A stretch of DNA of 48,751 nucleotides. Source: Candidatus Nanoarchaeia archaeon (GTDB lineage Archaea > Nanobdellota > Nanobdellia > Woesearchaeales > GW2011-AR4). The number at the start of each line of letters is the position of its first letter. The stretch's first letter is position 1. A program made the translations under genes and the position numbers. The notes beneath the pieces are model-generated. The model worked only from the letters and a program-made list of their open reading frames with translations. It did no database searches and was not told where the DNA came from. Shown here one piece after another: positions 5,778-45,694 of the stretch. The stretch covers positions 1-48,751 of the forward strand of contig DATDYS010000018.1 of NCBI GenBank assembly GCA_035288925.1, read 5' to 3'.

Positions 5778-6993
5778 AAATTTTCTTAACTTTGTACAGT
5801 GCCTCTACGAAATGATCAACTTCTTTCTCTGTATTGTACAAGTAAAATGATGCTCTTGCAGTTGCCGGCACTCCCAAAACGCCCATAAGCGGCATGCAGC
5901 AGTGATGGCCCGCCCTGACTGCAACTCCATCGCTGTCAAGTATCTGCGCAACATCATGGGCATGAACTCCCTTTACATTGAACGAGATAACCGCGCCCCT
6001 TTCCTTGGGGCCGTAAGTTTTTATCCAATCAATTTTTTTCAATTTTGCCATCGCATAATCAACCAATTCTGCATCATGGTTCCTTATATTTTCCATTCCT
6101 GTTTTTTTTAGATAATCAATTGCGGCGCCTAATCCTACGGCTTCTGCAATGTTCATAGTGCCCGCCTCAAATTTCCAGGGCAACTCGTTAAAGGTAGTGT
6201 CATCAAATTTTACTTCCCTTATCATTTCGCCGCCGTATAGGAATGGCTGCATTTCTTCAAGCAATTCTTTCTTGCCGTACAAAACTCCGATTCCTGTCGG
6301 GCCAAGCATCTTATGCCCGCTGAAAGCAAGAAAATCTGCATCCAATTGCTGGACATCAACCGGCATGTGCGGAACCGACTGGGCCCCATCAACAACCACC
6401 ATTGCCCCATGTTCATGCGCAATTTTTGCAATATCTTTTATTGGATTTATAGTTCCCAAAACATTTGAAGCGTGGGTTAATGAAACTATTTTTGTTCTTT
6501 TAGTTATATTTTCTTGAATGCTTTTTTTATCCAGATTCCCTTCTCCGTCGATTTTTATGAATTTTAATTTCAGCCCCCTTTGCTTTGCAAGCTGCTGCCA
6601 CGGAACAAAATTAGAGTGATGCTCCATCTGCGAGATTGCAATCTCATCTCCTTTTTTCAGTTTTGAAGTCAGTGAATATGCCAGCAGGTTTAATGATTCT
6701 GTTGTGTTTTTTGTAAAAACGATGTTTTGGTACGAATCAGCATTAATGAAATCCGCAACTTTCTCATGCGCTTCTTCATAAAGTTTTGTTGCTTCTTCGC
6801 CAATCTGATGGATGCTTCTGTGGATGTTTGCATTTGAATTTTTATAGTAATTATCCATTGCATCAATGACCTGCTTTGGCTTTTGGGAAGTTGCGGCGCT
6901 GTCAAAGTAAATCAACGGCTTTCCATGGATTTTTCTAGTTAAAATAGGAAAATCTTTTCTGATTTGCTCAATATTAAGTTTTGTTTTAATCAT
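5767..6993 (-). CDS. sufS: Cysteine desulfurase SufS (class V aminotransferase)
   Basis: 408 aa with SGHKMLGPTGIG (PLP lysine) and RAGHHCCMP (active-site Cys loop). Confidence 0.9.
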   Translation of the reverse strand: MIKTKLNIEQIRKDFPILTRKIHGKPLIYFDSAATSQKPKQVIDAMDNYYKNSNANIHRSIHQIGEEATKLYEEAHEKVADFINADSYQNIVFTKNTTESLNLLAYSLTSKLKKGDEIAISQMEHHSNFVPWQQLAKQRGLKLKFIKIDGEGNLDKKSIQENITKRTKIVSLTHASNVLGTINPIKDIAKIAHEHGAMVVVDGAQSVPHMPVDVQQLDADFLAFSGHKMLGPTGIGVLYGKKELLEEMQPFLYGGEMIREVKFDDTTFNELPWKFEAGTMNIAEAVGLGAAIDYLKKTGMENIRNHDAELVDYAMAKLKKIDWIKTYGPKERGAVISFNVKGVHAHDVAQILDSDGVAVRAGHHCCMPLMGVLGVPATARASFYLYNTEKEVDHFVEALYKVKKIFGV

Positions 6994-7267
6994 CTGAATC
7001 CTTCAGCCTAAAAAATGCCAATGTCCATCCATAGTCAACCTTGATTTCAGCTTTTGAACCTGCCGGCAAGACACCAACGAGCCAATTTTCGAAACTTCCG
7101 GTTAGTTTACCCCACAATGCCCATTCTGAGTAAGCCATTTCTGTCCTTGGCACTATTTCTCCAGTAGCCGGATCAAAACGGTATTCGCCTGCAAGGGATA
7201 TATGATACAATGCCTCGGGGAATCTTCTATGCATATCGCGCAAATTAATTTCAAGTTGATTCATCAT
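6986..7267 (-). CDS. Hypothetical 93-aa protein embedded in the suf operon
   Basis: Its ATG overlaps the sufD stop (ATGA, 7264-7267) and its stop overlaps the sufS start by 8 nt. It has no Cys and matches no family I recognise. Confidence 0.55.
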   Translation of the reverse strand: MMNQLEINLRDMHRRFPEALYHISLAGEYRFDPATGEIVPRTEMAYSEWALWGKLTGSFENWLVGVLPAGSKAEIKVDYGWTLAFFRLKDSDD

Positions 7268-8475
7268 TTCCTCACCAATTCCCTTATCTTTTCCTTCAAT
7301 TCTTCTGATGGAACTTTGTTAATCACCGGCTCGAAAAATCCTTCAACGATTAATTTTTCTGCTTCCTGCCTTGATAATCCCCTCGCCATCAGGTAAAACA
7401 AGTGCTCCTCGTCAATCTGGCCGACTGTCGCGCCGTGCGATGCTTTTACGTCGTTTGCATCAATCTTCAGGCTTGGAATTGAATTAGCCAGTGTCTTGTC
7501 GCCTAATTTCAAAATGTGATTCGCAAGATAAGAATTTGTTTTCTGGCCTTCTTTTGGAATCCTGATTAATCCGCGATAAACTGAAGAGGATTCATCTTTC
7601 AGAATTCCGTCAACCAAAATATCATTTATTGTGTTTTCGGCATTATGGTAAACATTTGTCGTGAAATCAATGTGCTCTTTTCGCTTTCCCAGGAATATCC
7701 CGATGTTGCTGCATTGTGAGCCCTGCCCGTTAAAGTTTGTGTCAATTCTTATCCTGTTTAGCTTTCCGCCGAAGCATCCCGAAACCCAGTTGATTGAAGC
7801 GTTTCTGTCTGCTGTTCCTATAAGATTGGTAAAGCTGCGTACATTATTTGTCCAATTATTTATATGGTAAAAATTTATTTTTGAGTTGGTGTTTGCAAAA
7901 ACCTCGGTAATGCAGGAATTTAGCTGCTCTCCAGCCGTTTCCCTATTTGAGTACTGCTCGATAAAATCCAGTTGAACATTTGATTCAACTACTATCAGAT
8001 TATGTAGAATGCTGTTCATCCCTTCCATCTCAAAATTAACCCTTATCGGTTCTGTCAGCTCAATATTTTTAGGAACATACAGAAAAATGCCGTGATTGAA
8101 ATGCGCTGCTGACAGTGCAACAAATTTGTCTTTGTCTATTTTACAAGATTTAAAAAAATAATTCAGTGCTGCTGGATATTTTTCAAGAGCTGAGTTAATA
8201 TCAGTCAAAATAACTCCCTGATTTATCAAATTCTCGCTTAACTCGGATGCTGATATTTTTACAGCCGATTCAAACGGCGCAAAATTTTCCAATTTTAATT
8301 TTTCAATCTCAGTATATCTCCAGTCTTCTTCCTTTTCCTTCGGCATGGGAACTGAATTAAATATTTCCAGAGCGTCCTCTTTTCTGCTTTTGGCAAAATC
8401 ACTATCCTTTTGCAGCAATTCCTTCATGGTATTTTTCATAATCAGATTCTCATGTTTAACGGCAGTATTAACCAT
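7264..8475 (-). CDS. sufD: Fe-S assembly protein SufD
   Basis: 403 aa. The C-terminal beta-helix region has LANSIPSLKIDANDVKASHGATVGQIDEEHLFYLMARGL, the same signature as in SufB. Confidence 0.85.
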   Translation of the reverse strand: MVNTAVKHENLIMKNTMKELLQKDSDFAKSRKEDALEIFNSVPMPKEKEEDWRYTEIEKLKLENFAPFESAVKISASELSENLINQGVILTDINSALEKYPAALNYFFKSCKIDKDKFVALSAAHFNHGIFLYVPKNIELTEPIRVNFEMEGMNSILHNLIVVESNVQLDFIEQYSNRETAGEQLNSCITEVFANTNSKINFYHINNWTNNVRSFTNLIGTADRNASINWVSGCFGGKLNRIRIDTNFNGQGSQCSNIGIFLGKRKEHIDFTTNVYHNAENTINDILVDGILKDESSSVYRGLIRIPKEGQKTNSYLANHILKLGDKTLANSIPSLKIDANDVKASHGATVGQIDEEHLFYLMARGLSRQEAEKLIVEGFFEPVINKVPSEELKEKIRELVRK

Positions 8476-8493: not shown

Positions 8494-11043
8494 TCAGCCT
8501 ACTGATCCTTCCATGTTCATTGCTATCAGCCTGTTCAGCTCAATAGCATATTCCAAAGGCAGCTCTTTCGTGAATGGCTCCATGAATCCTGAAACTACCA
8601 TTGTCAAAGCCTGGTCCTCGCTTAGGCCGCGGCTCATCAAATAGAACAGCTGCTCCTCGCCGACTTTTCCGACAGTCGCCTCATGCTCGATGTTAACATT
8701 CTTTTCATTTATTTCCATGTAAGGGACCGTGTCAGAAGCTGATTTGTCATCCAGAATTAGGGCATCGCAGGTCACATGGGACTTTACGCCGTGGCAGCCT
8801 TCTGCAACTTTTAGCAATCCGCGGTAAGTTGTCCTTCCGCCGTCTTTGCTGACTGACTTTGAAACAATTCTGGATGTCGTGTTCGGGGCATAATGCAATA
8901 TTTTTCCGCCCGCATCCTGATGCTGGCCCTTGCCCGCAAAAGCAACGCTTAAAATTTCAGCTCTTGCCCTTTCGCCAAGCAAATAAATTGACGGGTACTT
9001 CATCGTGATTTTGCTCCCTAAATTCCCGTCAACCCAGAAAACTGTTGCGTCTTCGTAGGCGAATGCCCTTTTTGTCACGAGATTGTAAACGTTATTGCTC
9101 CAGTTCTGGATTGTCGTGTACTGGATTCTTGAGCCTTTTAATGCAATTAATTCAACAACTGCTGAATGCAATGAGTCTGAGGAATAGATTGGGGCTGTGC
9201 AATTATGAACTGCAATTCCATGAGCAACGTAGGATTCATCTTCCGCAACGCTGAAATTGTAAACTTCAACATCACTTACAGTTTCTTTTCTTATTTCTTT
9301 AATTGGAACAAATGCGTAATTTTCTGTTATTTGAGCATAAGAAAGCAATTCTTGTTTTAATAATAATTCAGAATTGTTTTCACTTTGATTAATATTTTTA
9401 CCAACAACATTTGCAAATTTACCTAAATAAGTACCTCCGACATAAACTACAAATGAATTATTTCTTGGAGCTTTTTTATTCCAAACATTTATTGATGCAA
9501 AAATATTCAATCTTAACAATAAATCCCTTGTTTGTCCAGCGAGCGATTCCGAAATAGTGTTAATTCTAAACATCCTCTTAAATCCCCATGAATATTCTTT
9601 ATTAGTGAAGCTTCCATCCCCGCTCCAGTAACCTTTGATAAATTCCGCCTGCTTTTCAGGAGCTTCAAGCATAAGCCATTTTGGAAGTGATTTATTTTTA
9701 GCTCCGGAATTAAATTCCTGCTTGAATATTCTGGCTGCAACAGTGCTGCATAACACTAGTGATATTCCGTTTTTGTATTCTTTGTATTCCAATGGAGATT
9801 TTCCAAAATATTTTTCAAGCAACTCTGCAACATCATCCAAATATTTTCTTTCATTTTTGTTAAAGGTGAAAGATAAGTAATTTTTTCCCATTACGCTGCC
9901 TTCCGCCATGTAATAGCCAACTAACCTAAAGAAATCCTTGTCTGTGCTTATTTTAAATTGGATTGTCTTTGCAGGATGTCTTCCTCTTCCGATTTTTACT
10001 GAGAAGAATCTTTCATCTTGGGAAACAACAGTTCTTTCAATTGGAATTGCAACATAATCTAATTTCTCTAAGTCTTTTGACTCAACCCAGTCTAGCTTCC
10101 ATTCTGTATTTTTATATTCAGCTTTTTGCCTCTTGACTGCAAGAACTGGATGCCCCCCGGTAATCTTTATTTTTTGCCTTGAGTCGCCATAATAATTTAT
10201 TGTGCAAATCACTCCATCGTGCTTTCTTTTCATTGTCTTGTAAACTTTTTTGTAAGAATGCGTATGTGTGAAAACAACATCTCCTTCTTTCACATCCTCG
10301 ATTTTCTTCATACCATCAGAAGTTTTTATTGGAGCACCTTTTTCAAAGCACCCCTCGATATAATGCACGCTTGAGCCCGGCTCAGCGATAATTAAAGTCC
10401 TTTCAAACTGGCCTGCATTTTTTGCATTTATCCTGAAATATGCCTGCAGAGGCAAATCGACCTTGACGCCGGCCGGAACGTAAACAAAGCTTCCGCCGGA
10501 CCATACTGCTGAATTCAATGCAGCCAATTTGTTGTCATTATAGGGAATCACAGTTCCAAAATATTTTTTCACGATTTCCGGATACTGCTTTAAGCCGTCG
10601 TCCATTCCCAGGAAAATGACTCCTTTGTCTTCCAAGTCTTTTCTTATCTTGTGGTACACAAGCTCGCTTTCGTACTGCGCTCCAACGCCTCCTAAAAATT
10701 TCTGCTCGGCTTCCGGAATTCCCAATTTGTTGAAAGTGTCTTTAATGTAAGAAGGAACATCATCCCAGCTTGTTTCTGACTTGTCAGAGGGCTTTACGTA
10801 ATAATGAATATTTTCAAAATCTATCTGGTTTAAATCTGCCCCCCACTGGGGCATCGGCCTTTTCTTGTATTCCTCAAAAGATTTCAAGCGGAACTTCAAC
10901 ATCCATTCAGGCTCATTTTTCATCCTGGATATTTCTTCAATCAGCTCTTTTGTCAATCCTTTTCCTGACTTGAAAATGTAGTCTTCCTTGTCATGAAAGC
11001 CGTACTTGCTGTAATCCTTTTCGAATGTTTGCTCCTGTGCCAT
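8494..11043 (-). CDS. sufB: Fe-S scaffold SufB interrupted by an in-frame intein (849 aa; 466-aa exteins)
   Basis: The extein sequence ...GSSVHYIEG / CTAPIYSSDSLHSAVVE... rejoins the conserved EGC(T/S)AP motif. The C-terminal SufB signature is EHEATVGKVGEEQLFYLMSRGL. Confidence 0.9.
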   Translation of the reverse strand: MAQEQTFEKDYSKYGFHDKEDYIFKSGKGLTKELIEEISRMKNEPEWMLKFRLKSFEEYKKRPMPQWGADLNQIDFENIHYYVKPSDKSETSWDDVPSYIKDTFNKLGIPEAEQKFLGGVGAQYESELVYHKIRKDLEDKGVIFLGMDDGLKQYPEIVKKYFGTVIPYNDNKLAALNSAVWSGGSFVYVPAGVKVDLPLQAYFRINAKNAGQFERTLIIAEPGSSVHYIEGCFEKGAPIKTSDGMKKIEDVKEGDVVFTHTHSYKKVYKTMKRKHDGVICTINYYGDSRQKIKITGGHPVLAVKRQKAEYKNTEWKLDWVESKDLEKLDYVAIPIERTVVSQDERFFSVKIGRGRHPAKTIQFKISTDKDFFRLVGYYMAEGSVMGKNYLSFTFNKNERKYLDDVAELLEKYFGKSPLEYKEYKNGISLVLCSTVAARIFKQEFNSGAKNKSLPKWLMLEAPEKQAEFIKGYWSGDGSFTNKEYSWGFKRMFRINTISESLAGQTRDLLLRLNIFASINVWNKKAPRNNSFVVYVGGTYLGKFANVVGKNINQSENNSELLLKQELLSYAQITENYAFVPIKEIRKETVSDVEVYNFSVAEDESYVAHGIAVHNCTAPIYSSDSLHSAVVELIALKGSRIQYTTIQNWSNNVYNLVTKRAFAYEDATVFWVDGNLGSKITMKYPSIYLLGERARAEILSVAFAGKGQHQDAGGKILHYAPNTTSRIVSKSVSKDGGRTTYRGLLKVAEGCHGVKSHVTCDALILDDKSASDTVPYMEINEKNVNIEHEATVGKVGEEQLFYLMSRGLSEDQALTMVVSGFMEPFTKELPLEYAIELNRLIAMNMEGSVG
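9202..10350 (-). mobile_element. 383-aa intein with LAGLIDADG homing-endonuclease domain inside sufB
   Basis: It starts CFEKGAPIKTSDG (Cys1, codon 10350-10348). Block B is ITGGHP. The two LAGLIDADG motifs are LVGYYMAEGSV and FIKGYWSGDGSF. It ends VAHGIAVHN (Asn codon 9204-9202), followed by the +1 Cys of CTAP. Confidence 0.85.
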
Positions 11044-15875: not shown

Positions 15876-16838
15876 TCAGACTAACATGCTTTGCAGAGCA
15901 TTAAACAGGTATCCGGTAAATATTATTCCAAAAGTCACGATTCCAAAAAATATTGCAATAAGTTTTAGCTTCATAGCCCTTCTAAGGATTATAGCTTCAG
16001 GAAAGCTCAGCGCGGATATGGCCATCATAAAAGCAAGGGCAGTGCCGATTGGTATTCCCTTCTGGAACAAGGCTAACGCAATCGGAACAATTGCCGCGCA
16101 GCTTCCATACATTGGAACTCCGATTAAAGTTGCAACCGGGACAGTAAATATTCCTCCTTGGCCTATCAGCCTATGAATTAATTCTTCCGGAACATAATTG
16201 TGGATTACTGCGCCTGCAGCGACCCCAACTAAAATCCATATCCATAATTTTTTAACAATTGAAAATGCCTCATTTATTCCAAACAGAAATCTGCTTTTTA
16301 TATTCCTGTTCAAATCTTCACTTTTTATTTTCGGCTTTTTTGAAATCAGGTCTTTAACTAAATATTTGCTTAGATTCATCTTTCCCAGCATCATCCCAGA
16401 TATTGTTCCGATTAAAATCCCGCTGATGACATAAGCTAATGTTATTTTCCAGCCAAAAAATCCAAGCATCAGGACAACAAGATATTCATTTATTAGGGGG
16501 GAGGTTATCAGAAACGAAAATGAAACGCCCAACGGAATCTGCGCTTCAAGAAAGCTCAAAAATATTGGAACAGACGAGCAGGAGCAGAATGGCGTTACTG
16601 CGCCAAAAACTGACGCAAGCAGGTTTCCAGCCCCTGCTTTCCTGCCGCTCAGCCATTTTTTTATTTTGTCCTCGGAAATATAAGTTCTTAGTACGCCCAT
16701 TATAAATATCATAAGAAATAAGAGGAATACAATCTTTATAGAATCATAAACAAAATAATTTATTGATTCGGAATACTTTAAGCTTGGATTCAATCCTATG
16801 CCATTATACAGTCCCCAGTCAACTATTTGCTGCAGCAC
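15876..16838 (-). CDS. Predicted permease (COG0701/ArsP-like, two-Cys motif)
   Basis: 320 aa, polytopic, with TPFCSCSSVPIF. GTG start overlapping the stop of the upstream Cys-rich micro-ORF. Confidence 0.6.
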   Translation of the reverse strand: MLQQIVDWGLYNGIGLNPSLKYSESINYFVYDSIKIVFLLFLMIFIMGVLRTYISEDKIKKWLSGRKAGAGNLLASVFGAVTPFCSCSSVPIFLSFLEAQIPLGVSFSFLITSPLINEYLVVLMLGFFGWKITLAYVISGILIGTISGMMLGKMNLSKYLVKDLISKKPKIKSEDLNRNIKSRFLFGINEAFSIVKKLWIWILVGVAAGAVIHNYVPEELIHRLIGQGGIFTVPVATLIGVPMYGSCAAIVPIALALFQKGIPIGTALAFMMAISALSFPEAIILRRAMKLKLIAIFFGIVTFGIIFTGYLFNALQSMLV

Positions 16839-16954
16839 GAGCCTTCTTTTCCGTCACCATCGCAGCAGCATTCCTTTTCCTTTGACTTCTTTTCCATTTT
16901 TTTGTCAAGATTCTCAACAAATTTTCCAAATATTCCTTTTTTCTTTTCAGCCAT
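16823..16954 (-). CDS. 43-aa Cys-rich micro-protein (below the ORF-track cutoff)
   Basis: My translation is MAEKKKGIFGKFVENLDKKMEKKSKEKECCCDGDGKEGSCCSK. The SD-like ggagtgat lies 6 nt upstream. Its stop overlaps the permease start. Confidence 0.5.
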   Translation of the reverse strand: MAEKKKGIFGKFVENLDKKMEKKSKEKECCCDGDGKEGSCCSK

Positions 16955-17010
16955 TTAAATCACTCCAATAATTTTCTTATTTTTTCCTTTTCCACAGGCA
17001 AGCCGGAAAT

Positions 17011-17451
17011 TCACAGTGTTTTCTGGTCGACCGGAATGTTAATCATTTCAATTCCAATATTTTTTGCAACGTCAAAAATCCTCTGGTCGCGGTAGAATTC
17101 ACCATAATATATTTTTTTAATTCCAGCGTTCGCAAGCATCTTAAAGCAGGGCCAGCATGGAGATGCGGTTATGTAAACCTCCCCTCCGTTAATCATGACG
17201 CCGTTTTTCGCTGCCTGTAAAATTGCATTAGTCTCTGCATGAATTGTGGCAACGCAATGGCCGTCTTCCATCATGTGGCCTACATCATCGCAATGCGGCA
17301 TTCCTCTTATGCTCCCATTATAGCCTGTCGATAAAATAGTCTTGTCTCTTACAATCAAAGCGCCAACATGCTTTCTGTCGCAGGTGCTTCTGGTTGCGAC
17401 TTCTTTCGCTATGTTCATGAAATACTGCTCCCAGTTTGCCCTTTGCGTCAT
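17011..17451 (-). CDS. dCMP (CMP/dCMP-type) deaminase
   Basis: HAETNAI zinc motif and PCWPCFKML. The ATG at 17451 overlaps the upstream stop as ATGA. Confidence 0.85.
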   Translation of the reverse strand: MTQRANWEQYFMNIAKEVATRSTCDRKHVGALIVRDKTILSTGYNGSIRGMPHCDDVGHMMEDGHCVATIHAETNAILQAAKNGVMINGGEVYITASPCWPCFKMLANAGIKKIYYGEFYRDQRIFDVAKNIGIEMINIPVDQKTL

Positions 17452-18005
17452 TTTAAGCTTTCCATCCATTCATCAAATTCCTTATTTGCTTCTTCTATTG
17501 TTCCGTTGCTGCTTATGTGCTTATCAACCATAGAGAGGCACTTGTCAAGTTGCTGGCCGGATTCCTCGTTATTGTTCTCGCGCTGCTCGTGTTCTCTGAA
17601 CTCTTCGAACGTCGTTGCATCGCCAATCCTCCCCCTCTTCAAAAGCCTCTGAAACCTTATCTTTTCATCAGTTACAACGCCAACCAATAAAAAACCTTCG
17701 TTCTTTTTCAGCTCGCGTATCTCGCCCGGGTTTCTTATGCTGTCTATCACGAAATCTTTCCTGCCATTGAATTTTTCTTTTTGAATTTTTATATTTATCC
17801 TTTCAGCAAGAATTCCGTTTCCGAAATTTTTCCTTAACTCATTTCCTAGAGTTATCAGGCCGCTTCTAGAATAATCAAGTTTTCTTCTGTCCGCCTCTTC
17901 CCTTAAAGCGTCAGACAATGAAAAATAAGCAAATCCTTTTGACTGGAGATGCTTTGCAATCTCCCCCTTTCCAGCTGCGTTTTTGCCTGTTAGGCCGACT
18001 ATCAT
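17448..18005 (-). CDS. P-loop nucleotide kinase-like protein (dNMP-kinase / UPF0200-like)
   Basis: Starts at MIVGLTGKNAAGKGE (P-loop) and is translationally coupled to the dCMP deaminase. The exact specificity is unknown. Confidence 0.5.
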   Translation of the reverse strand: MIVGLTGKNAAGKGEIAKHLQSKGFAYFSLSDALREEADRRKLDYSRSGLITLGNELRKNFGNGILAERINIKIQKEKFNGRKDFVIDSIRNPGEIRELKKNEGFLLVGVVTDEKIRFQRLLKRGRIGDATTFEEFREHEQRENNNEESGQQLDKCLSMVDKHISSNGTIEEANKEFDEWMESLK

Positions 18006-18434: not shown

Positions 18435-18887
18435 TCATTTCTTCTGCAGCTTTTCCAATTCTTCCGCGAACCTATCCAAGTCACCAAACTCGCGGTAAAC
18501 TGATGCAAACCTTATGTAAGCAACTTTATCAAGAGATTTCAGCTTTTTCATGACAATCTCCCCGATGACTTTGCTTTCAACTTCAACAGAATCCCTTTTC
18601 CTTAAATCGGATTCCACTTCATCAACAAGCTCATCTATCTTTTCAATGGGGATCTCTCTTTTTTCGCACGCCTCGATTATCCCGTTAAGGACTTTCTGCC
18701 TCTGAAAACGCTCTCTTTTGCCGTTTTTCTTGACAACGATGATATCCGCTTCCTCAACTCTTTCATAGGTTGTAAACCTTTTATTGCATTTCATGCATTC
18801 CCTTCTTCTTCTGGTTGCTTCCAGATTCTCAGTCTCCCGGGTATCAATGACCTGGGTTTCCTCGAAATTGCAGTAAGGGCATTTCAT
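18435..18887 (-). CDS. nrdR: NrdR transcriptional repressor (zinc ribbon + ATP-cone)
   Basis: MKCPYCNFEETQVIDTRE...RRRRECMKCNKRFTTYERVE, then an ATP-cone-like region (AYIRFASVYREF). Confidence 0.85.
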   Translation of the reverse strand: MKCPYCNFEETQVIDTRETENLEATRRRRECMKCNKRFTTYERVEEADIIVVKKNGKRERFQRQKVLNGIIEACEKREIPIEKIDELVDEVESDLRKRDSVEVESKVIGEIVMKKLKSLDKVAYIRFASVYREFGDLDRFAEELEKLQKK

Positions 18888-23264: not shown

Positions 23265-23348
23265 GCCGACGTGGCACAATCTGGTACTGCGCTAGCCTTG
23301 AGAGCTTGTTCCCGCAAGGGTTTCTCGGTTCAAATCCGAGCGTCGGCG
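23265..23348 (+). tRNA. tRNA-Ser (anticodon UGA), class II with long variable arm, no encoded CCA
   Basis: Hand-folded. Acceptor stem gccgacg/cgtcggc. 3-bp D stem. Anticodon loop ct-TGA-ga. Variable arm ccc-gcaa-ggg. T arm ctcgg-ttcaaat-ccgag. Discriminator g. Confidence 0.85.
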
Positions 23349-31264: not shown

Positions 31265-31807
31265 CTAAGGTATCCTTCTTATCTGCCTGGAGAAATATTC
31301 TTCCTCTTCGTCGGACAAAACAACCGGCTTTGGAGCTGAAACTTTCGGAGTTTTCTTTTCTTTTTCAAAATTGCCGACGTTTTTGGCAGAGTCTTTTAAT
31401 TTTAGCTCTACTGTGGACATTTCCTCCTCGCTCAGCTGCTTCGGCTGCCATTGTAAATTAATCCCGTCATTCTCTTTTCTTGGGATAACATTGATCATGA
31501 AATGAGCAACAGTCTGGCCTGCCGGAATTCCATTTGCGACAAAAATGTTAGTTCCCTGCGCGCCGAGCGCCTCAAAAATTGCAGTTGAAATTTTATTGGA
31601 TACCTGGAACATTTTTCCGATTTCAGAATCCGGAACTTGCTCTATTATAGGGTAATGGTTTTTTGGAATCACAAAGCAATGGCCAGGATTTGCTCCGTTG
31701 ACATCGAGAACCGCCATGGTTAAGTCATCCTCATAAACTTTCTTGGATGGAATTCCACCTCCGACAATCTGGCATATTATGCAGTTTTCCCGAACTTTGC
31801 CTGCCAT
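31265..31807 (-). CDS. HIT-superfamily-like protein with degenerate histidine triad
   Basis: CIICQIVGG...GHCFVIPKNHY, but the triad region reads HFMINVIPR. Lys/Glu-rich C-terminal tail. Confidence 0.6.
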   Translation of the reverse strand: MAGKVRENCIICQIVGGGIPSKKVYEDDLTMAVLDVNGANPGHCFVIPKNHYPIIEQVPDSEIGKMFQVSNKISTAIFEALGAQGTNIFVANGIPAGQTVAHFMINVIPRKENDGINLQWQPKQLSEEEMSTVELKLKDSAKNVGNFEKEKKTPKVSAPKPVVLSDEEEEYFSRQIRRIP

Positions 31808-32499
31808 TACTTAACACCCAGAATTTTTGAAATATCGTCCAGATTGATTCCGCTCTTCGGCTGGTCAACTGCTAAATTAGTTTTAGCCTGTTTTTTTGTT
31901 TTCTTCGGAGGCTCTTCCTTTGGAGTTTCATTAATTTTCTTTTCCGGAAGTGGCGCAAACTGCGGAATAAACGGCGGTTCTTCTTTTTCTACTGTACCTC
32001 CAAGCGCAGCAGCGAGCTTGCTGCCTATCAACTCAATCTCATTTTCATTCATGGTTTTCTGCGGCAAAACAAAATTTATGCCGTCATTCTCTTTTCTCGG
32101 AATCAGATGGACCATGAAATGCTGCACCCTCTGGCCTGCCGCAATCCCATTTGCCACTACAATGTTAGTGCCCTGCGCATCGATGGAGCGGAGCATTGAA
32201 TTGGAAAGCGCTTTCACAACCAGGAAAACATCGGCAACATCCTCATCCGGAAGCTGAGGCATGATGGAATAATGCTCTTTCGTCATTATGAGGGTATGCC
32301 CTGGATTTCCGGGATTGATGTCTAGAATTCCAATTACCTTCTCATCTTCATAGATTTTTTTGGCCTGAATTTTGCCGGAAACTATTTGGCAAAAAATACA
32401 CTGCTTTTTCTGAAAGTCCTTCAGCTCCTCAGGAGACATATTCTTTATTTTCTCCTGCAAAGCTTTCAGCTGCTCCTGCGACATGTTTTCGTCTGCCAT
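31807..32499 (-). CDS. HIT-superfamily-like protein, tandem paralog, degenerate triad
   Basis: CIFCQIVSG...GHTLIMTKEHY. The triad region reads HFMVHLIPR. Its stop overlaps the start of the downstream paralog by 1 nt. Confidence 0.6.
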   Translation of the reverse strand: MADENMSQEQLKALQEKIKNMSPEELKDFQKKQCIFCQIVSGKIQAKKIYEDEKVIGILDINPGNPGHTLIMTKEHYSIMPQLPDEDVADVFLVVKALSNSMLRSIDAQGTNIVVANGIAAGQRVQHFMVHLIPRKENDGINFVLPQKTMNENEIELIGSKLAAALGGTVEKEEPPFIPQFAPLPEKKINETPKEEPPKKTKKQAKTNLAVDQPKSGINLDDISKILGVK

Positions 32500-33963: not shown

Positions 33964-34095
33964 TTTGCACCAAATTAAGTTACATCATGGGGTGGATGGA
34001 AGGCAACTAAATAAAATTTAGTGCAAGTGGACATTCCCTCCCTTAGTAATTAATTTAAAATAAAGAATTACAAAAAATCGACTAAACAAATAAAA

Positions 34096-39590: not shown

Positions 39591-39828
39591 ATCAGGGAGG
39601 GAACCCAAAGTTGCACCAGATTGGATTTATCCGCCCTGACTTGCGTGTGAGAACGGGTGACATGCGAGAGTTCGCTCTCGCTCACTCAGGTCACTCTTCG
39701 AACACGCTCACCGTTTAAGTACCCACCCCAAACCATTTAATAAAATCGTGCTCGATAAATAAAAGAAAAATATAAGGTGTGGGAACCATCTGGAATCGGT
39801 TGAGAGCAAGTGACAATGTTCCCCTGAT
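39591..39828 (+). ncRNA. Copy 1 of an unclassified block-conserved, self-complementary element (candidate structured RNA)
   Basis: It shares six ordered blocks with 44958-45124. The termini atcaggg/ccctgat are complementary. It contains an 83-nt hairpin insertion. The strand is assigned only by co-orientation with the downstream genes. Confidence 0.45.
39643..39707. repeat. 65-nt GC-rich extended hairpin module inserted in copy 1
   Basis: Nested stems gcgtgt/acacgc, gtgac/gtcac and gcgagag-ttcg-ctctcgc. The core is related to the hairpin at 41390-41454. Confidence 0.55.
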
Positions 39829-39958
39829 GAAAAAGTTAAGTAAAAAGCTAATAATTAATATTAAAAAACCGTTCAAAACCAAATATTAGACTAAAAATAT
39901 AAATTAAAATAATTAGATTTAAAAACATTAGAAATTAAATCAGGCAAAAAAGAGGAAA

Positions 39959-41365
39959 ATGGCAACAACTGAAGCTGATTTGAAGAAGCATGGCTTTGAA
40001 AAGATCGAGGAAAGCGAGGAGTTCAGAGGCTCCAAGATAAAAACTGGCTATCCTCAGCCGTCAAGGAGGTACAGGCTTCACTACGAGGGCTACAATATTT
40101 CCATCGAAGAGCCATATTTCTGGACGCTGCACTATCTAAGGTATTTCGGCGGGTTTCCGAGAATAGACAAGATAACTGACGTTTTTGCAGCCGCTGAGAA
40201 CTCCGCTTTTTTCGGGGCGTCGCAGCAGAGAATCGGGCTGCAGCAGGACAAGGTCAGCCAGTTTCTTGCGACAATCGGAAAAATGGTAAGGGAGCTCTTC
40301 CAGCTTGTGAGGGAGATGAGGATTCTTGACGAGAGGCTAAGCTATTACGCCGACAGCTATACGAACAGCCCAAGCGCGGAAAGCGCAGAAATAACATTAA
40401 AGGGAATCTGGGTTGATTTAGTCGAACAGGGCGCAAAAAATCCTGCTTCAGTTTATGGAATGGCGCGTGAAGTCCAGTTCACGACACTGCCGGACTTGTT
40501 TTTCAGCACGAATCCGAAAAAGCAGGAGGATGTTGATGTTGTTGTCGAAAAAGACAGGGGGCAGTTCAACCGAAAAGTCAAGGAAGTTTTGAAAAGAAAG
40601 CTGAGGTCTTTTTTGGCGTGGAAAGAGCATTCTTATGACGAGTTAAAAAACAGGAGAAAGTTCACACTTAAATATTTGCGGCAGCACTTTGAGATAATCA
40701 GGATGTACATGAATTGGGTAAAGCCGTACCTAAAAAATATACAAAGGCTGCAGCTGGACCAGTCGAAATCCGACACTCCTGATTTGATTGTTGCATTCGA
40801 AAGCTCTATGATTGAAGTCGAGATTCTTGCGGTCAAGCCCGGAAAAATAAACCAATGCATTCTGATGCATTATCTTTTCAGGACCCGCCCGGAAATGAAT
40901 TATTCACAGGAATATCAAAGAGGGCCTATACACCTTGGAAGGGTTGAAATTGATTTTAGGGCTTACGCGTGGAGCGACAAGGACATCGAGAATTACAAGA
41001 GATTAAGGGATCAGGAGGATTTCAAGCTGCTTGGGGTTGTTGACGGCTCTGTCAAGGCAGCGCTCGAAGCTCTTGGAGATGAGCTGATGAGATATCTAAA
41101 AGAAGCAGGGGAGGAGTTTGAAGAGAAAAAAGAATCTCCAAAGGAGAAATATAAGCAGAGCGGAACTTTCTTATCAGTGTTTCAGGGTTTTGCAGAATTG
41201 TTCACATCATTTAATGCAAAAAAAACTTCGCGGCCAAAAAAAGTTTCCCAGACGGACCTGATGAAAGACGCCCTCGCGAGAAAAGAAGCGGCAGACAAAG
41301 TGAAAAAAGTCATGTGGAACACTTACCATCATTTCAAGAAGCACCATGATATGCTGAACTGGTAA
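39959..41365 (+). CDS. Hypothetical 468-aa protein (orphan; Lys-rich C-terminal tail)
   Basis: ATG preceded by agagg. Long uninterrupted ORF in a G+C-richer island. No domain recognised. Confidence 0.6.
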   Translation: MATTEADLKKHGFEKIEESEEFRGSKIKTGYPQPSRRYRLHYEGYNISIEEPYFWTLHYLRYFGGFPRIDKITDVFAAAENSAFFGASQQRIGLQQDKVSQFLATIGKMVRELFQLVREMRILDERLSYYADSYTNSPSAESAEITLKGIWVDLVEQGAKNPASVYGMAREVQFTTLPDLFFSTNPKKQEDVDVVVEKDRGQFNRKVKEVLKRKLRSFLAWKEHSYDELKNRRKFTLKYLRQHFEIIRMYMNWVKPYLKNIQRLQLDQSKSDTPDLIVAFESSMIEVEILAVKPGKINQCILMHYLFRTRPEMNYSQEYQRGPIHLGRVEIDFRAYAWSDKDIENYKRLRDQEDFKLLGVVDGSVKAALEALGDELMRYLKEAGEEFEEKKESPKEKYKQSGTFLSVFQGFAELFTSFNAKKTSRPKKVSQTDLMKDALARKEAADKVKKVMWNTYHHFKKHHDMLNW

Positions 41366-41389
41366 AAGGGTTTCGCCCCTTTAGGACGA

Positions 41390-41454
41390 GAAACTTTTTA
41401 GTGACTTGTGAGCGAGTTCGCAACGAGCTCACTCGCATTTGACTAAAAAGTTTC
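41390..41454. repeat. 65-nt extended hairpin module downstream of ORF468
   Basis: 13-bp outer stem gaaactttttagt/actaaaaagtttc. The inner gtgac-ttgtgagcgagttcgcaacgagctcactc core resembles 39656-39690. Confidence 0.55.
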
Positions 41455-41526
41455 ATCAAAAATGGAGGCCTCGCATTCGCTCAGCCCCCAGAAATTTTAT
41501 ATTTTGATAATTTTATAAAAATGCCC

Positions 41527-41547
41527 CCACATGTCGCATGTGGTTTT
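41527..41547 (+). terminator. 7-bp hairpin plus T-run (terminator-like)
   Basis: ccacatg-tcg-catgtgg followed by tttt. Confidence 0.4.
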
Positions 41548-41711
41548 ACTTTGCAGAACAACAAAATTTTTGCCTCCGCTAAGACAGTGGTAAAGTTATA
41601 ATAGGGAAATCTGAATGATTCCTTATCTCGACATTTTCATTCAAAGTTATCTTAGAAAATTCTAACTATTGCATAATTTTTCAAAGTGTTCTACAGGGCG
41701 TTACATAGATT

Positions 41712-41993
41712 CTACTCCACCATTATATCAAGAATCTCTTCAAGTTCTCTTGTTATTTCTAATCCATGCACAGAGGTTGAACTATGGTGAGGTACAGCCT
41801 TATCTAAAATAGCAATCCTTTCCTCTGGAGTTAATCTTCTATACGCCTCGTTAACTGCATCATAGAGCTTCTTTACAGCTAAGTTTAAAGTAGAATCCTG
41901 CATAACCTGTGCACCCGCATTTAAAGCACAAGAGTGTGCATGAAAAATACTGGCATATTGCTCAAGAGATGGAATTGTGATTTCTTTTGCCAT
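41712..41993 (-). CDS. Hypothetical 93-aa protein (orphan)
   Basis: Clean ATG ORF, MAKEITIPSLEQYASIFHAHSCALNAG... No motif recognised. Confidence 0.4.
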   Translation of the reverse strand: MAKEITIPSLEQYASIFHAHSCALNAGAQVMQDSTLNLAVKKLYDAVNEAYRRLTPEERIAILDKAVPHHSSTSVHGLEITRELEEILDIMVE

Positions 41994-42132
41994 ATTTCAG
42001 AAATAACAAAAAAACAAGCCAACTATTTAAATTTATGCATGCTGTCAGTCTGGGCTATATAGATGGGGATTTCTATTCTATTGCCAAGTTATATAACCAA
42101 ATATTTAAATAATTGAATTCTTATACATAATT

Positions 42133-44872: not shown

Positions 44873-44957
44873 ATTCTTAAGAGAAATAATTATATAATTG
44901 TTATGAAATAGGACTTATTCTGCGGATAGTTTTGATTTAAATAATGAATTAAACTTA

Positions 44958-45124
44958 ATCAGGGAGGGAACTTGATTGTCGCACTTTAGGTTATTTATCC
45001 GCCCTCCACCCACCCAAAGATATAAACCAATCAAGTGCAACTGTTGCTCAATAAGAGGAACACAGAAATAAGGTGTGGGAACTATCAGCAATCGGTTGGG
45101 GGCAACAGGCAATGTTCCCCTGAT
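44958..45124 (+). ncRNA. Copy 2 (minimal, 167 nt) of the unclassified structured element
   Basis: It has the same six blocks as 39591-39828, no hairpin insertion, and its own 8-bp helix cttgattg/caatcaag. Confidence 0.45.
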
Positions 45125-45199
45125 AAAAAATTTAATAAAAAATATTTAAAACATTGAACATCAAAAATTAAATCAAAAAAATAAAAACTTACAATTAAA

Positions 45200-45694
45200 A
45201 TGATTGACAAAAAAGATCTTGCAAAGCTCTCCCCTGAAGAGAGGATAAAGCGGCTGAAGCAGCTGGAAGAGGAAAGAAAAAAAGACGCAGGTGAAATAGA
45301 GCAGCTAATAAAACAGTCAATGCAGGAATTAAAGACCGATAGGCTTGCAGAGGAAATTACACCGGAGCGGAAGGCTGTTGACATTTCAAGATTGTTTGAA
45401 AAAGAAAGCGGCGGCAGGCTCGAGAAAGCTGCAAGGCAGTCGGGCAGCGCAGCAGCGGGAAATTACCAGACCGTAACCCAGGTATACCAGGCTTATTCGC
45501 AGTTAAGGGAATTCTATGGCATAGTTGCGGGCGGAAGCAACCTAAGCCAAGACCAGCTTAGGGCAATAGGCCAGATAGGGGAAAAGCTGAACGTTGCCGA
45601 AAAATACATGACAGAGAGCGAGAGAACAGCATCAAAGCTCAATGCAAGCAAGGCAGTTCTGTATAAATTAAAAAAAGAGACGGGATTGGAATGA
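45200..45694 (+). CDS. Hypothetical 164-aa protein with coiled-coil-like N-terminus (orphan)
   Basis: Clean ATG, EERIKRLKQLEEERKKDAGEIEQLIKQ. No domain recognised. Confidence 0.5.
   Translation: MIDKKDLAKLSPEERIKRLKQLEEERKKDAGEIEQLIKQSMQELKTDRLAEEITPERKAVDISRLFEKESGGRLEKAARQSGSAAAGNYQTVTQVYQAYSQLREFYGIVAGGSNLSQDQLRAIGQIGEKLNVAEKYMTESERTASKLNASKAVLYKLKKETGLE

Follow-up and report, generated by a model that had tools for sequence, protein, structure and literature searches.

Known short repeats of prokaryotic genomes give the frame in which we discuss the element reported here. The BIME/REP and ERIC/Correia families are mosaics of short motifs in intergenic DNA with palindromic units; REP units are single palindromes of 20-40 nt mobilised by RAYT transposases, and Correia and ERIC elements have near-perfect long inverted repeats. 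DPANN archaea have very small genomes with short intergenic spacers, and we know of no description of small interspersed repeats in them. A review of prokaryotic MITEs (transposable elements of the miniature inverted-repeat type) gives Sulfolobus, Halobacterium and Haloquadratum as archaeal hosts and names no DPANN lineage (PMC10969869). The BOX elements of Streptococcus pneumoniae are modular and have MITE features, and their boxA and boxC modules stimulate downstream genes (PMC3049150). The element in question lies upstream of the genes ORF468 and ORF164 in a 48,751-nt stretch of DNA from a Candidatus Nanoarchaeia archaeon (assembly GCA_035288925.1, contig DATDYS010000018.1, positions 1 to 48,751 of the forward strand), hereafter the window. 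The best-supported reading, to which as a whole we give a probability of about 0.5, is that it is a new, young, low-copy, mosaic and non-autonomous intergenic repeat of the MITE/BOX kind, and that its family is restricted to one narrow clade of DPANN archaea from groundwater (Woesearchaeota/Nanoarchaeota). An initial annotation of the window had proposed a structured RNA of the riboswitch or attenuator kind in front of two orphan genes; what survives of that interpretation is a non-coding, block-conserved element that is absent from Rfam; the structured RNA and the switch are not supported, and the genes are no orphans.

The likeness of the two full copies in the window is beyond chance because three collinear exact matches of 14-15 nt fall within 240 nt; at 0 mismatches the window contains each of these long blocks exactly two times, and a repeat finder returns copy 1 and copy 2 as a 98-nt pair of 79% identity. 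The six blocks first described in copy 1 are all present and recur in the same order in copy 2, and further shared blocks can be added to them, namely T(T/C)GCAC, G(T)TGCTC(A/G)AT and G(A/G)G(A/G)GCAA. The complementarity of the ends (ATCAGGG/CCCTGAT) and the count of two GGGAAC against one GTTCCC are both correct. With nested insertions removed, the full copies align straightforwardly over 150-167 nt (the core is 156 nt in copy 1 and 167 nt in copy 2), and the conserved blocks follow each other in the order AT(C/A)AGGGAGGGA(A)C, TTGCAC, (T)TGCCCTCCACCCACCC, GTGCTC(A/G)AT, A(A/T)AAGGTGTGGGAAC(C/T)ATC, AATCGGT, G(A/G)G(A/G)GCA and ATGTTCCCCTGAT. Between these blocks the spacers drift in sequence but vary by no more than 1 nt in length, and all copies agree in the length of the 3' 83 nt. 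A terminal motif, AT(C/A)AGG..GGAAC, has three copies, two of them direct (one at the 5' end, the other inside the element where the 3' half begins) and one inverted, at the 3' end; the C-rich block holds a degenerate inverted copy of it. These direct and inverted copies make the element a composite of two units bounded by inverted repeats, alpha and beta, joined by a linker. The alpha unit (5') is bounded by AT(C/A)AGGGAGGGA(A)C and the degenerate inverted copy in the C-rich block, the linker takes up about 50 bp, and the beta unit (3', 57 bp) runs from the direct terminal-motif copy ATAAGGTGTGGGAAC to the inverted copy GTTCCCCTGAT. Either half occurs alone, as alpha with the following spacer and GTGCAA or as beta with the linker. 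A helical phasing of the terminal motifs, which are spaced by about 42, 63 and 40 bp and interrupted by insertions of 41-84 bp, was considered and treated as numerology. In the window the copies and their parts are the following.

39591-39828, plus strand: copy 1 (c1), a full element whose 238 nt comprise a 156-nt core and an 82-nt nested hairpin; covariance-model score 125 bits.
44958-45124, plus strand: copy 2 (c2), full element of 167 nt, with an extra AAGTGCAA at 45033-45040; covariance-model score 160 bits.
33965-34046, minus strand: third copy (wP), 5' half only, reading CTAAGGGAGGGAAT ... TTGCAC ... TTGCCTTCCATCCACCCC ... GTGCAA; identified by profile and covariance model.
39591-39604 in copy 1 and 44958-44971 in copy 2, plus strand: block ATCAGGGAGGGAAC; in copy 1 this is terminal motif copy m1, at the 5' end of the alpha unit.
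39611-39616, plus strand: TTGCAC block, complementary to GTGC of the GTGCTCGAT block at 39748-39756.
39626-39637 in copy 1 and 44994-45005 in copy 2, plus strand: block TTTATCCGCCCT, the C-rich block with the degenerate inverted terminal motif; in copy 1 the nested hairpin separates it from CCCACCC.
39640-39721, plus strand: nested 82-nt GC-rich hairpin in copy 1, absent from the L011 ortholog and related to the hairpins at 41385-41462 and in L014.
39722-39728 in copy 1 and 45009-45015 in copy 2, plus strand: block CCCACCC.
39748-39756, plus strand: GTGCTCGAT linker block.
39772-39828, plus strand: beta unit of 57 nt, in which 31 nt that include AATCGGTTG and GAGAGCAA separate the internal terminal-motif copy ATAAGGTGTGGGAAC from the inverted one, GTTCCCCTGAT.
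39772-39786 in copy 1 and 45068-45082 in copy 2, plus strand: block ATAAGGTGTGGGAAC.
39794-39802 in copy 1 and 45090-45098 in copy 2, plus strand: block AATCGGTTG.
39814-39828 in copy 1 and 45110-45124 in copy 2, plus strand: block CAATGTTCCCCTGAT.

The family is larger than the pair from which it was first described. A profile built from the copies finds the half copy wP, which is placed antisense in the gap between two genes of the same direction, right against the stop codon of the upstream one. More copies exist in related genomes, at five or more other loci in metagenome contigs of closely related Woesearchaeota/Nanoarchaeota; seven independent loci are counted for the family. In one exact-pattern scan each of genome and metagenome collections, which by their nature reach members close to the pattern and leave diverged ones outside, copies came from Nanoarchaeota/Woesearchaeota-type contigs only, many of them from the Hainich aquifer, along with a few chance matches. 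These copies include orthologs of copy 2 (L006, L009 and L010). Three further loci carry copies beside genes that Pfam could name: upstream of a gene for a helix-turn-helix (HTH)-adenylosuccinate lyase protein (L001), upstream of a CBS-HTH regulator gene and divergent from the S-adenosylmethionine (SAM) synthetase gene metK (L005), and between the genes for S-adenosylmethionine decarboxylase and a CN-hydrolase (L008). Orthologous loci, fetched through homologs of ORF468, ORF164 and SAM synthetase, hold orthologs of copy 1 (L011-13 and L018), and the copy 2 site also occurs in versions reduced to the 3' half (L019-22 and L010). A second copy of the 5' half alone sits at positions 399-493 of L006, between the genes for ribosomal protein S6e and aIF2-gamma. 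Both nhmmer and a covariance model of six copies, run over about 220 kb of related DNA, recovered this known set with nothing further and nothing more diverged. Three pattern scans of the viral collection IMG/VR gave chance matches only, and blastn against plasmids and phages gave no match.

Comparison of orthologous sites shows that intergenic positions gain and lose copies from one close relative to the next. The c1 site is filled in the window, in L011-13 and in L018, and empty in L051, where ORF468 is 94% identical and the spacer measures 88 nt, as well as in L016/17, L014 and L015. The wP site is filled in the window only, where the spacer is 132 nt; in L011 and L014 the corresponding spacers measure 19 and 2 nt. 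At the AdoMet decarboxylase/CN-hydrolase junction L008 is filled and L054-58 have a 65-nt spacer; the CBS-HTH/metK gap is filled in L005 and holds an unrelated, strongly folding sequence in L054; empty orthologous sites exist for c2 also. The family is missing from relatives that share 86-94% protein identity. Besides occurring as separate halves, the copies are mosaic. In spacer V3, the variable stretch from the C-rich block to GTGCTC, copy 1 and its L011 ortholog share 90% identity, as against only 47% in the alpha region, where copy 1 matches L008 (72%) and L011 matches L005 (76%); this patchwise identity means that modules have been exchanged between copies, and orthologous copies carry different alpha units. 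At the c2 site the beta unit was kept and the alpha unit decayed in two lineages, and the AATCGGT block was lost in L019.

Two of these junctions deserve a remark of their own. The sequence in the CBS-HTH/metK gap of L054 (3010-3260, minus strand; also in L055-L057) is about 250 nt long, unrelated to the element, and contains four or five perfect hairpins. It folds with a z-score of -4.4, better than any of 200 shuffles, and belongs to no Rfam family (best match sub-threshold, E = 0.0016). It may represent another structured RNA or repeat. In the gap between the AP_endonuc_2 gene and ORF164, the place of copy 2 is taken in L011 by a Laminin_G_3 protein gene (16209-17927) and in L018 by a ParE toxin pair with an ORF of unknown function (6062-7655). 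The AP_endonuc_2/ORF164 junction is a hotspot for insertions.

The difference in length between the two full copies of the window, 238 against 167 nt, is due almost entirely to the 82-nt hairpin nested in copy 1, an unrelated hairpin repeat. Its local alignment to the hairpin at 41385-41462 and to two hairpins of L014 scores 33-36, against a null of 15.7 +/- 4.4; judged by this similarity, the insert is a nested member of a second family of small palindromic repeats, and no expansion segment of a structured RNA. The member in the window outside the main element is:

41385-41462, plus strand: GTGACTTG hairpin family member, just after the stop codon of ORF468.

This second family consists of long GC-rich hairpins built on GTGACTTG(T/G)GAGCGAG...CTCGC(T/A)CAC. 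In L014, a more distant relative whose ORF468 is 86% identical, intergenic members lie at 16050-16100 and 16195-16275, one of them with a nested hairpin of its own. Other hairpins interrupt the element at other points in L001 and in L010/L018, so that three different insertion points are tolerated. The initial annotation had taken the divergence between blocks as a sign of a structural RNA rather than a plain duplication. That the copies are no plain local duplication holds true, but the length differs through a foreign nested hairpin and the 5' halves differ through module exchange between copies.

The conserved blocks may be sequence-specific sites for a protein supplied in trans, be it a DNA-binding protein of the host or a transposase or recombinase whose gene lies elsewhere, which would explain why sequence and not pairing is conserved, why spacers of fixed length drift, and why the motif recurs in both orientations. 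The element would spread by non-autonomous transposition or recombination, and its modules would be exchanged by homologous recombination across the conserved blocks. As a side effect, and by analogy with pneumococcal boxA and boxC, it may influence transcription of the downstream gene, because the beta end always faces the gene with an A-run and a TATA-like box within 1-7 bp.

Several observations weigh against a mobile repeat of this kind. The flanks of the six copies compared display no consistent target-site duplication, the only candidates being two offset A/T-rich matches, AAAGTT (copy 1) and TAAAATT (L008), inconsistent in length and position. At every filled/empty pair the whole AT-rich spacer differs, beyond the element itself, and the insertion edges are therefore not clean. 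No transposase, integrase or reverse transcriptase is encoded in the window or beside any copy, and no autonomous element with the same ends occurs in the window or the fetched loci. The copy number seems low, so that mobility is deduced from presence/absence and mosaicism only. The complementarity of TTGCAC and GTGCAA, interleaved with that of GGGAGGG and CCCTCC, is kept even in half copies, which a simple model with terminal inverted repeats alone does not predict. Lastly, the internal blocks are conserved above what a decaying transposon would lead one to expect, which argues for selection on them, and an RNA function would explain this as well.

An RNA is indeed the alternative that calls for the closest attention, and we regard as possible, though unlikely, that the copies form a family of small non-coding RNA genes with a trans-acting or other role. 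Such an RNA would fold at its 5' side into a pseudoknot, with GGGAGGG:CCCUCC interleaved with UUGCAC:GUGCAA, and at its 3' side into a GGGAAC:GUUCCC hairpin with a conserved 31-nt loop, its ends closed by AUCAG:CUGAU, and targets that are G-rich or resemble a Shine-Dalgarno sequence could pair with its exposed C-rich tract CCCUCCACCCACCC. The complementary blocks are kept in all copies; GGGAGGG, TTGCAC, the C-rich block and GTGCAA are also retained in the two independent half copies, which stop right after GTGCAA and have spacers of 18-20 nt that are unrelated in sequence and a fixed distance from TTGCAC to GTGCAA. In copy 2 the GTGC partner is mutated to TTGC, and a new AAGTGCAA, complementary to GCACTT, stands 3 nt upstream of that block; the closing stem of L011 shows one compensatory change (ATAAG/CTTAT), and one-sided changes give G:U pairs on the plus strand five times, against two that give G:U on the other strand. 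The tolerance of hairpin insertions at three different points and the AT-rich, TATA-like words that stand 4-14 nt upstream of every copy would also suit a transcribed RNA.

Tests for structure, however, do not bear out the candidate structured RNA of the initial annotation. Once nested hairpins are taken out, the minimum-free-energy z-scores of nine copies fall between +0.9 and -2.1, with the two strands much alike, and the -2.4 of copy 1 is due to its nested hairpin; folding of this type cannot score pseudoknots, which leaves these near-zero values blind to the very fold proposed. An unbiased scan for stacks of covarying columns returned only 4-bp, G:U-rich chance stacks on either strand. Two explicit pairing models, in which pseudoknots were allowed, comprised the closing stem, GGGAGG:CCUCCC, UUGCAC:GUGC..AA and GGGAAC:GUUCCC, with UGCUC:GAGCA and CCCAC:GUGGG as alternative pairings; over 6-12 sequences most pairs are invariant, one cell is compensatory against seven unpaired, and 166-216 of 500 shuffles do as well on the covariation measures. 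Proposed paired blocks vary without compensation in several copies, an outcome that the initial annotation had itself named as refuting. The conserved blocks are complementary, yet there is no sign that pairing rather than sequence is conserved.

Other features also sit badly with an RNA gene: the upstream TATA-like words keep no fixed distance and the flanks are not conserved, an oligo-T terminator is missing and the 3' flank is A-rich, the two halves separate, the AATCGGT block is dispensable in L019, the nested hairpin of copy 1 comes from another repeat family, and absence from relatives at 86-94% protein identity would be unusual for a functional RNA gene. The absence from Rfam is confirmed, both at the gathering threshold over the window, where the only Rfam 15 match is a tRNA-Ser at 23265-23348, and in E-value scans of copy 1 and four compact-copy loci, which gave noise only (E > 2). 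ARAGORN, which detects tRNA and tmRNA, finds nothing at the element and only the tRNA-Ser elsewhere in the window, and a search of the literature on structured or non-coding RNAs of DPANN or Woesearchaeota brought up nothing relevant. It is tempting to combine both ideas into a previously undescribed mobile, pseudoknotted small RNA of DPANN archaea, with a 5' domain able to work alone and a C-rich tract that would act in trans on G-rich or Shine-Dalgarno-like sequences, or with a catalytic or guide role, the family spreading as a unit between intergenic sites; we hold this combination to be rather improbable.

The position of the copies with respect to genes and promoters raises the question of a portable cis-regulatory DNA module, that is, an upstream activating or operator region together with a B recognition element (BRE) and TATA box. 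The relevant features of the window are these.

39829-39850, plus strand: A-run and TATA-like tail GAAAAAGTTAAGTAAAAAG directly after copy 1; recurs after most copies.
39918-39942, plus strand: predicted TATA-like box TTTAAAAACATT of ORF468 and AAATTAAATCA motif, between the element and the ATG at 39959.
45145-45175, plus strand: TATA-like box and AAATTAAATCA motif upstream of ORF164 (ATG at 45200).

All five full copies are co-oriented with the downstream gene, their beta end toward it and 50-130 nt from its ATG, and in full copies an A-run and a TATA-like word (e.g. AAAAAATTTAATAA, GAAAATTTAAAATA) follow CCCCTGAT at 1-7 nt; the two half copies, which are inverted and antisense to both neighbouring genes, likewise turn their outer end to the TATA-like box of the next gene. 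Under the regulatory hypothesis, a factor binding the half-sites GGGAAC/GTTCCC and TTGCAC/GTGCAA would place unrelated downstream genes in one regulon. This would agree with the conservation of sequence rather than pairing at fixed spacing, with the recurrence of the motif in direct and inverted form, and with the retention of the beta unit at the c2 site after the decay of alpha in two lineages. Moreover, the regions upstream of ORF468 and ORF164 share TTTAAAA(A)CATT and AAATTAAATCA; the spacer similarity reported initially is real, since AAATTAAATCA occurs only twice in the 48.7-kb window, 27-35 nt before the ATG of these two genes. On the other hand, TATA-like words are everywhere in such AT-rich spacers, which makes their adjacency to the element weak evidence, suggestive only. 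The ancestral promoter of ORF468 at the c1 site is still present 90 nt further downstream, half-sites 31-60 bp apart lie beyond the reach of an ordinary dimeric factor, the copies have no linked regulator gene, and the downstream genes have no common functional theme. We therefore find a dedicated regulatory module hard to favour, although the idea overlaps with the mosaic-repeat explanation rather than excluding it.

The same gene context bears on the riboswitch or attenuator leader that had been suggested for ORF468 and ORF164 on the strength of mutually exclusive pairings, a suggestion we now consider very improbable and effectively excluded. It has in common with known riboswitches and attenuators its conserved blocks, alternative pairings and a position upstream of genes on the same strand; the redundant G- and C-blocks do permit alternatives, with GUGGGAAC able to pair with either CCCAC or GUUCCC, and the copies are co-oriented with their downstream genes. 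Against it, a predicted TATA-like box and Shine-Dalgarno sequence of ORF468 lie at 39918-39955, between the element and the ATG, and an equivalent arrangement is conserved at the empty sites L016, L014 and L051, which places the element upstream of the promoter and outside the leader. The genes downstream of the five full copies are unrelated (ORF468, ORF164, an HTH-adenylosuccinate lyase fusion, a CBS-HTH regulator and a CN hydrolase), the element is absent from the orthologous leaders of close relatives, half copies stand antisense between genes, and there is no terminator, no platform sequestering a Shine-Dalgarno sequence or otherwise controlling expression, no covariation above shuffled controls in the 6-12 sequences compared, and no Rfam match. 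Still less credible is a small protein-coding gene or pseudogene fragment on either strand, for which one could cite a 65-codon antisense ORF in copy 2 (44915-45112), a sense ORF across the element in L001 and a 3' half whose fixed length could in principle preserve a reading frame, but whose open frames lie on different strands in different copies with none consistent across them, with in-frame stops in most copies, single-nucleotide indels in the spacers (V1 of 8 or 9 nt, V2 of 16 or 17 nt, a 1-nt deletion in L008) and variable 3'-half positions that, by inspection, are spread over codon positions as 7, 6 and 6, showing no periodicity; the element is non-coding, as first described.

A few further classes were tried and rejected. 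The block order of the 5' half mirrors the P1-P2-P3-P1'-P4-P2' order of ribozymes like that of hepatitis delta virus (HDV), with a G-rich strand, TTGCAC, a short hairpin region, a C-rich strand, an insertion-tolerant variable region and GTGCAA. In the alignment, however, the first G faces an A, which leaves no G.U at the base of P1 and the cleavage site; from copy to copy the nearest C stands anywhere from 1 to 9 nt ahead of GTGC, so that no catalytic C is positionally conserved; and the P2-P1' region of 16-17 nt has no tight P3/L3, and no Rfam HDV-family match is obtained. For an integron attC site, GGGAAC...GTTCCC keeps the AAC/GTT triplets, but its purine/pyrimidine pattern is reversed and there is no extended hairpin, the copies stand 5.3 kb apart in conserved synteny, and the window encodes no integrase. 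For a C/D box small RNA, CUGA is present at the 3' end, but no copy has a conserved C box and no Rfam C/D match rises above noise. CRISPR remnants, replication-origin boxes and permuted or split tRNAs were dismissed, either because their defining features are missing or because the element is multi-copy and strain-variable.

The two genes downstream of the copies in the window had been taken for orphans, which they are not: more than 1,700 homologs at 73-95% identity were found for ORF468, and 158 for ORF164. ORF468 (39959-41365, plus strand; 468 aa) is highly conserved, with homologs across Woesearchaeota in conserved synteny; it has no match in Pfam, NCBIfam or the PDB sequences, and its AlphaFold2 model is poor (mean predicted local distance difference test score, pLDDT, 56), with a confident beta-sheet core and long helices of low confidence. 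Some 670 nt past the ORF468 hairpin (41463-42132) contain no convincing plus-strand gene, a 93-codon minus-strand ORF at 41712-41993 and further short hairpins, e.g. CCACATG-TCG-CATGTGG near 41527-41543; the equivalent region holds different small genes in L011 and L018 and is therefore a variable island.

The window as a whole is ordinary chromosome, with a SUF operon and genes for EF-2, L7Ae, NDK and NrdR. Its SufB gene (8494-11043, minus strand) is interrupted by an intein with a LAGLIDADG homing-endonuclease domain and adjoins an uninterrupted SufB/D-family paralog at 7264-8475; at 18435-18887 (minus strand) this archaeal genome encodes an NrdR-type repressor with zinc ribbon and ATP-cone. 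Two direct repeats were also seen: one of 127 nt and 77% identity (31440-31566 and 32057-32183) in adjacent HIT-family paralogs (DcpS_C/HIT), which are in tandem in L011 too, and one of 31 nt and 94% identity (278-308 and 375-405, 97 nt apart) in or beside the ORF at 34-408.

As regards the wider meaning of these observations, at least two short intergenic repeat families, the mosaic element and the GC-rich hairpins, turn over between strains about 5% apart in flanking protein; they expand spacers from 2-90 nt to 130-410 nt, lie immediately upstream of promoters and swap modules. Should the mosaic-repeat reading be right, the element would serve as a strain-typing marker, illustrate how reduced genomes remodel their regulatory regions, and help to find the enzyme that moves it. 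If the internal complementarities were instead to reflect an RNA fold, they would define a new class of archaeal RNA.

How, then, does the element compare with the known systems? With BIME/REP and ERIC/Correia repeats it shares the mosaic of motifs, the palindromic units and the co-occurrence of small palindromic repeats, here the GTGACTTG hairpins; it differs from REP in that no RAYT transposase gene was seen here, and from Correia and ERIC in being complementary at its ends only. The likeness to MITEs is closer. The core is shorter than 200 bp, non-coding and intergenic, with imperfect terminal inverted repeats of 11-14 bp, of which ATCAGGG(AGG)GAAC pairs with GTTC-CCCTGAT over 11 bp with a 3-nt indel; several dispersed copies exist, with presence/absence polymorphism in close relatives and filled and empty sites at c1, wP, c2 and L008, albeit with edges that are not clean. 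Unlike MITEs, it has an internal third copy of the terminal motif, block-wise internal conservation, drifting spacers of fixed length and half elements that keep the internal complementarity. As neither a consistent target-site duplication nor a partner transposase or other autonomous partner was found, we file it as MITE/BOX-like, short of a proven MITE. From BOX elements (boxA-boxB(n)-boxC in S. pneumoniae, and the BOX-type elements of S. suis) it differs in its archaeal host, its unrelated sequence, its much lower copy number in the data seen and its want of a tandemly amplifiable middle module; BOX elements fold into stable stem-loops, whereas z-scores of the present core are near 0, and target-site duplications are reported for BOX alone of the two. 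In architecture, nevertheless, the two resemble each other: both are short, non-coding and intergenic, both are modular, with complementary end modules around a variable interior, both have no transposase of their own and harbour other repeats nested inside, and, as in BOX, modules come in varying combinations, here as alpha-only, beta-only and alpha+beta forms exchanged between orthologs.

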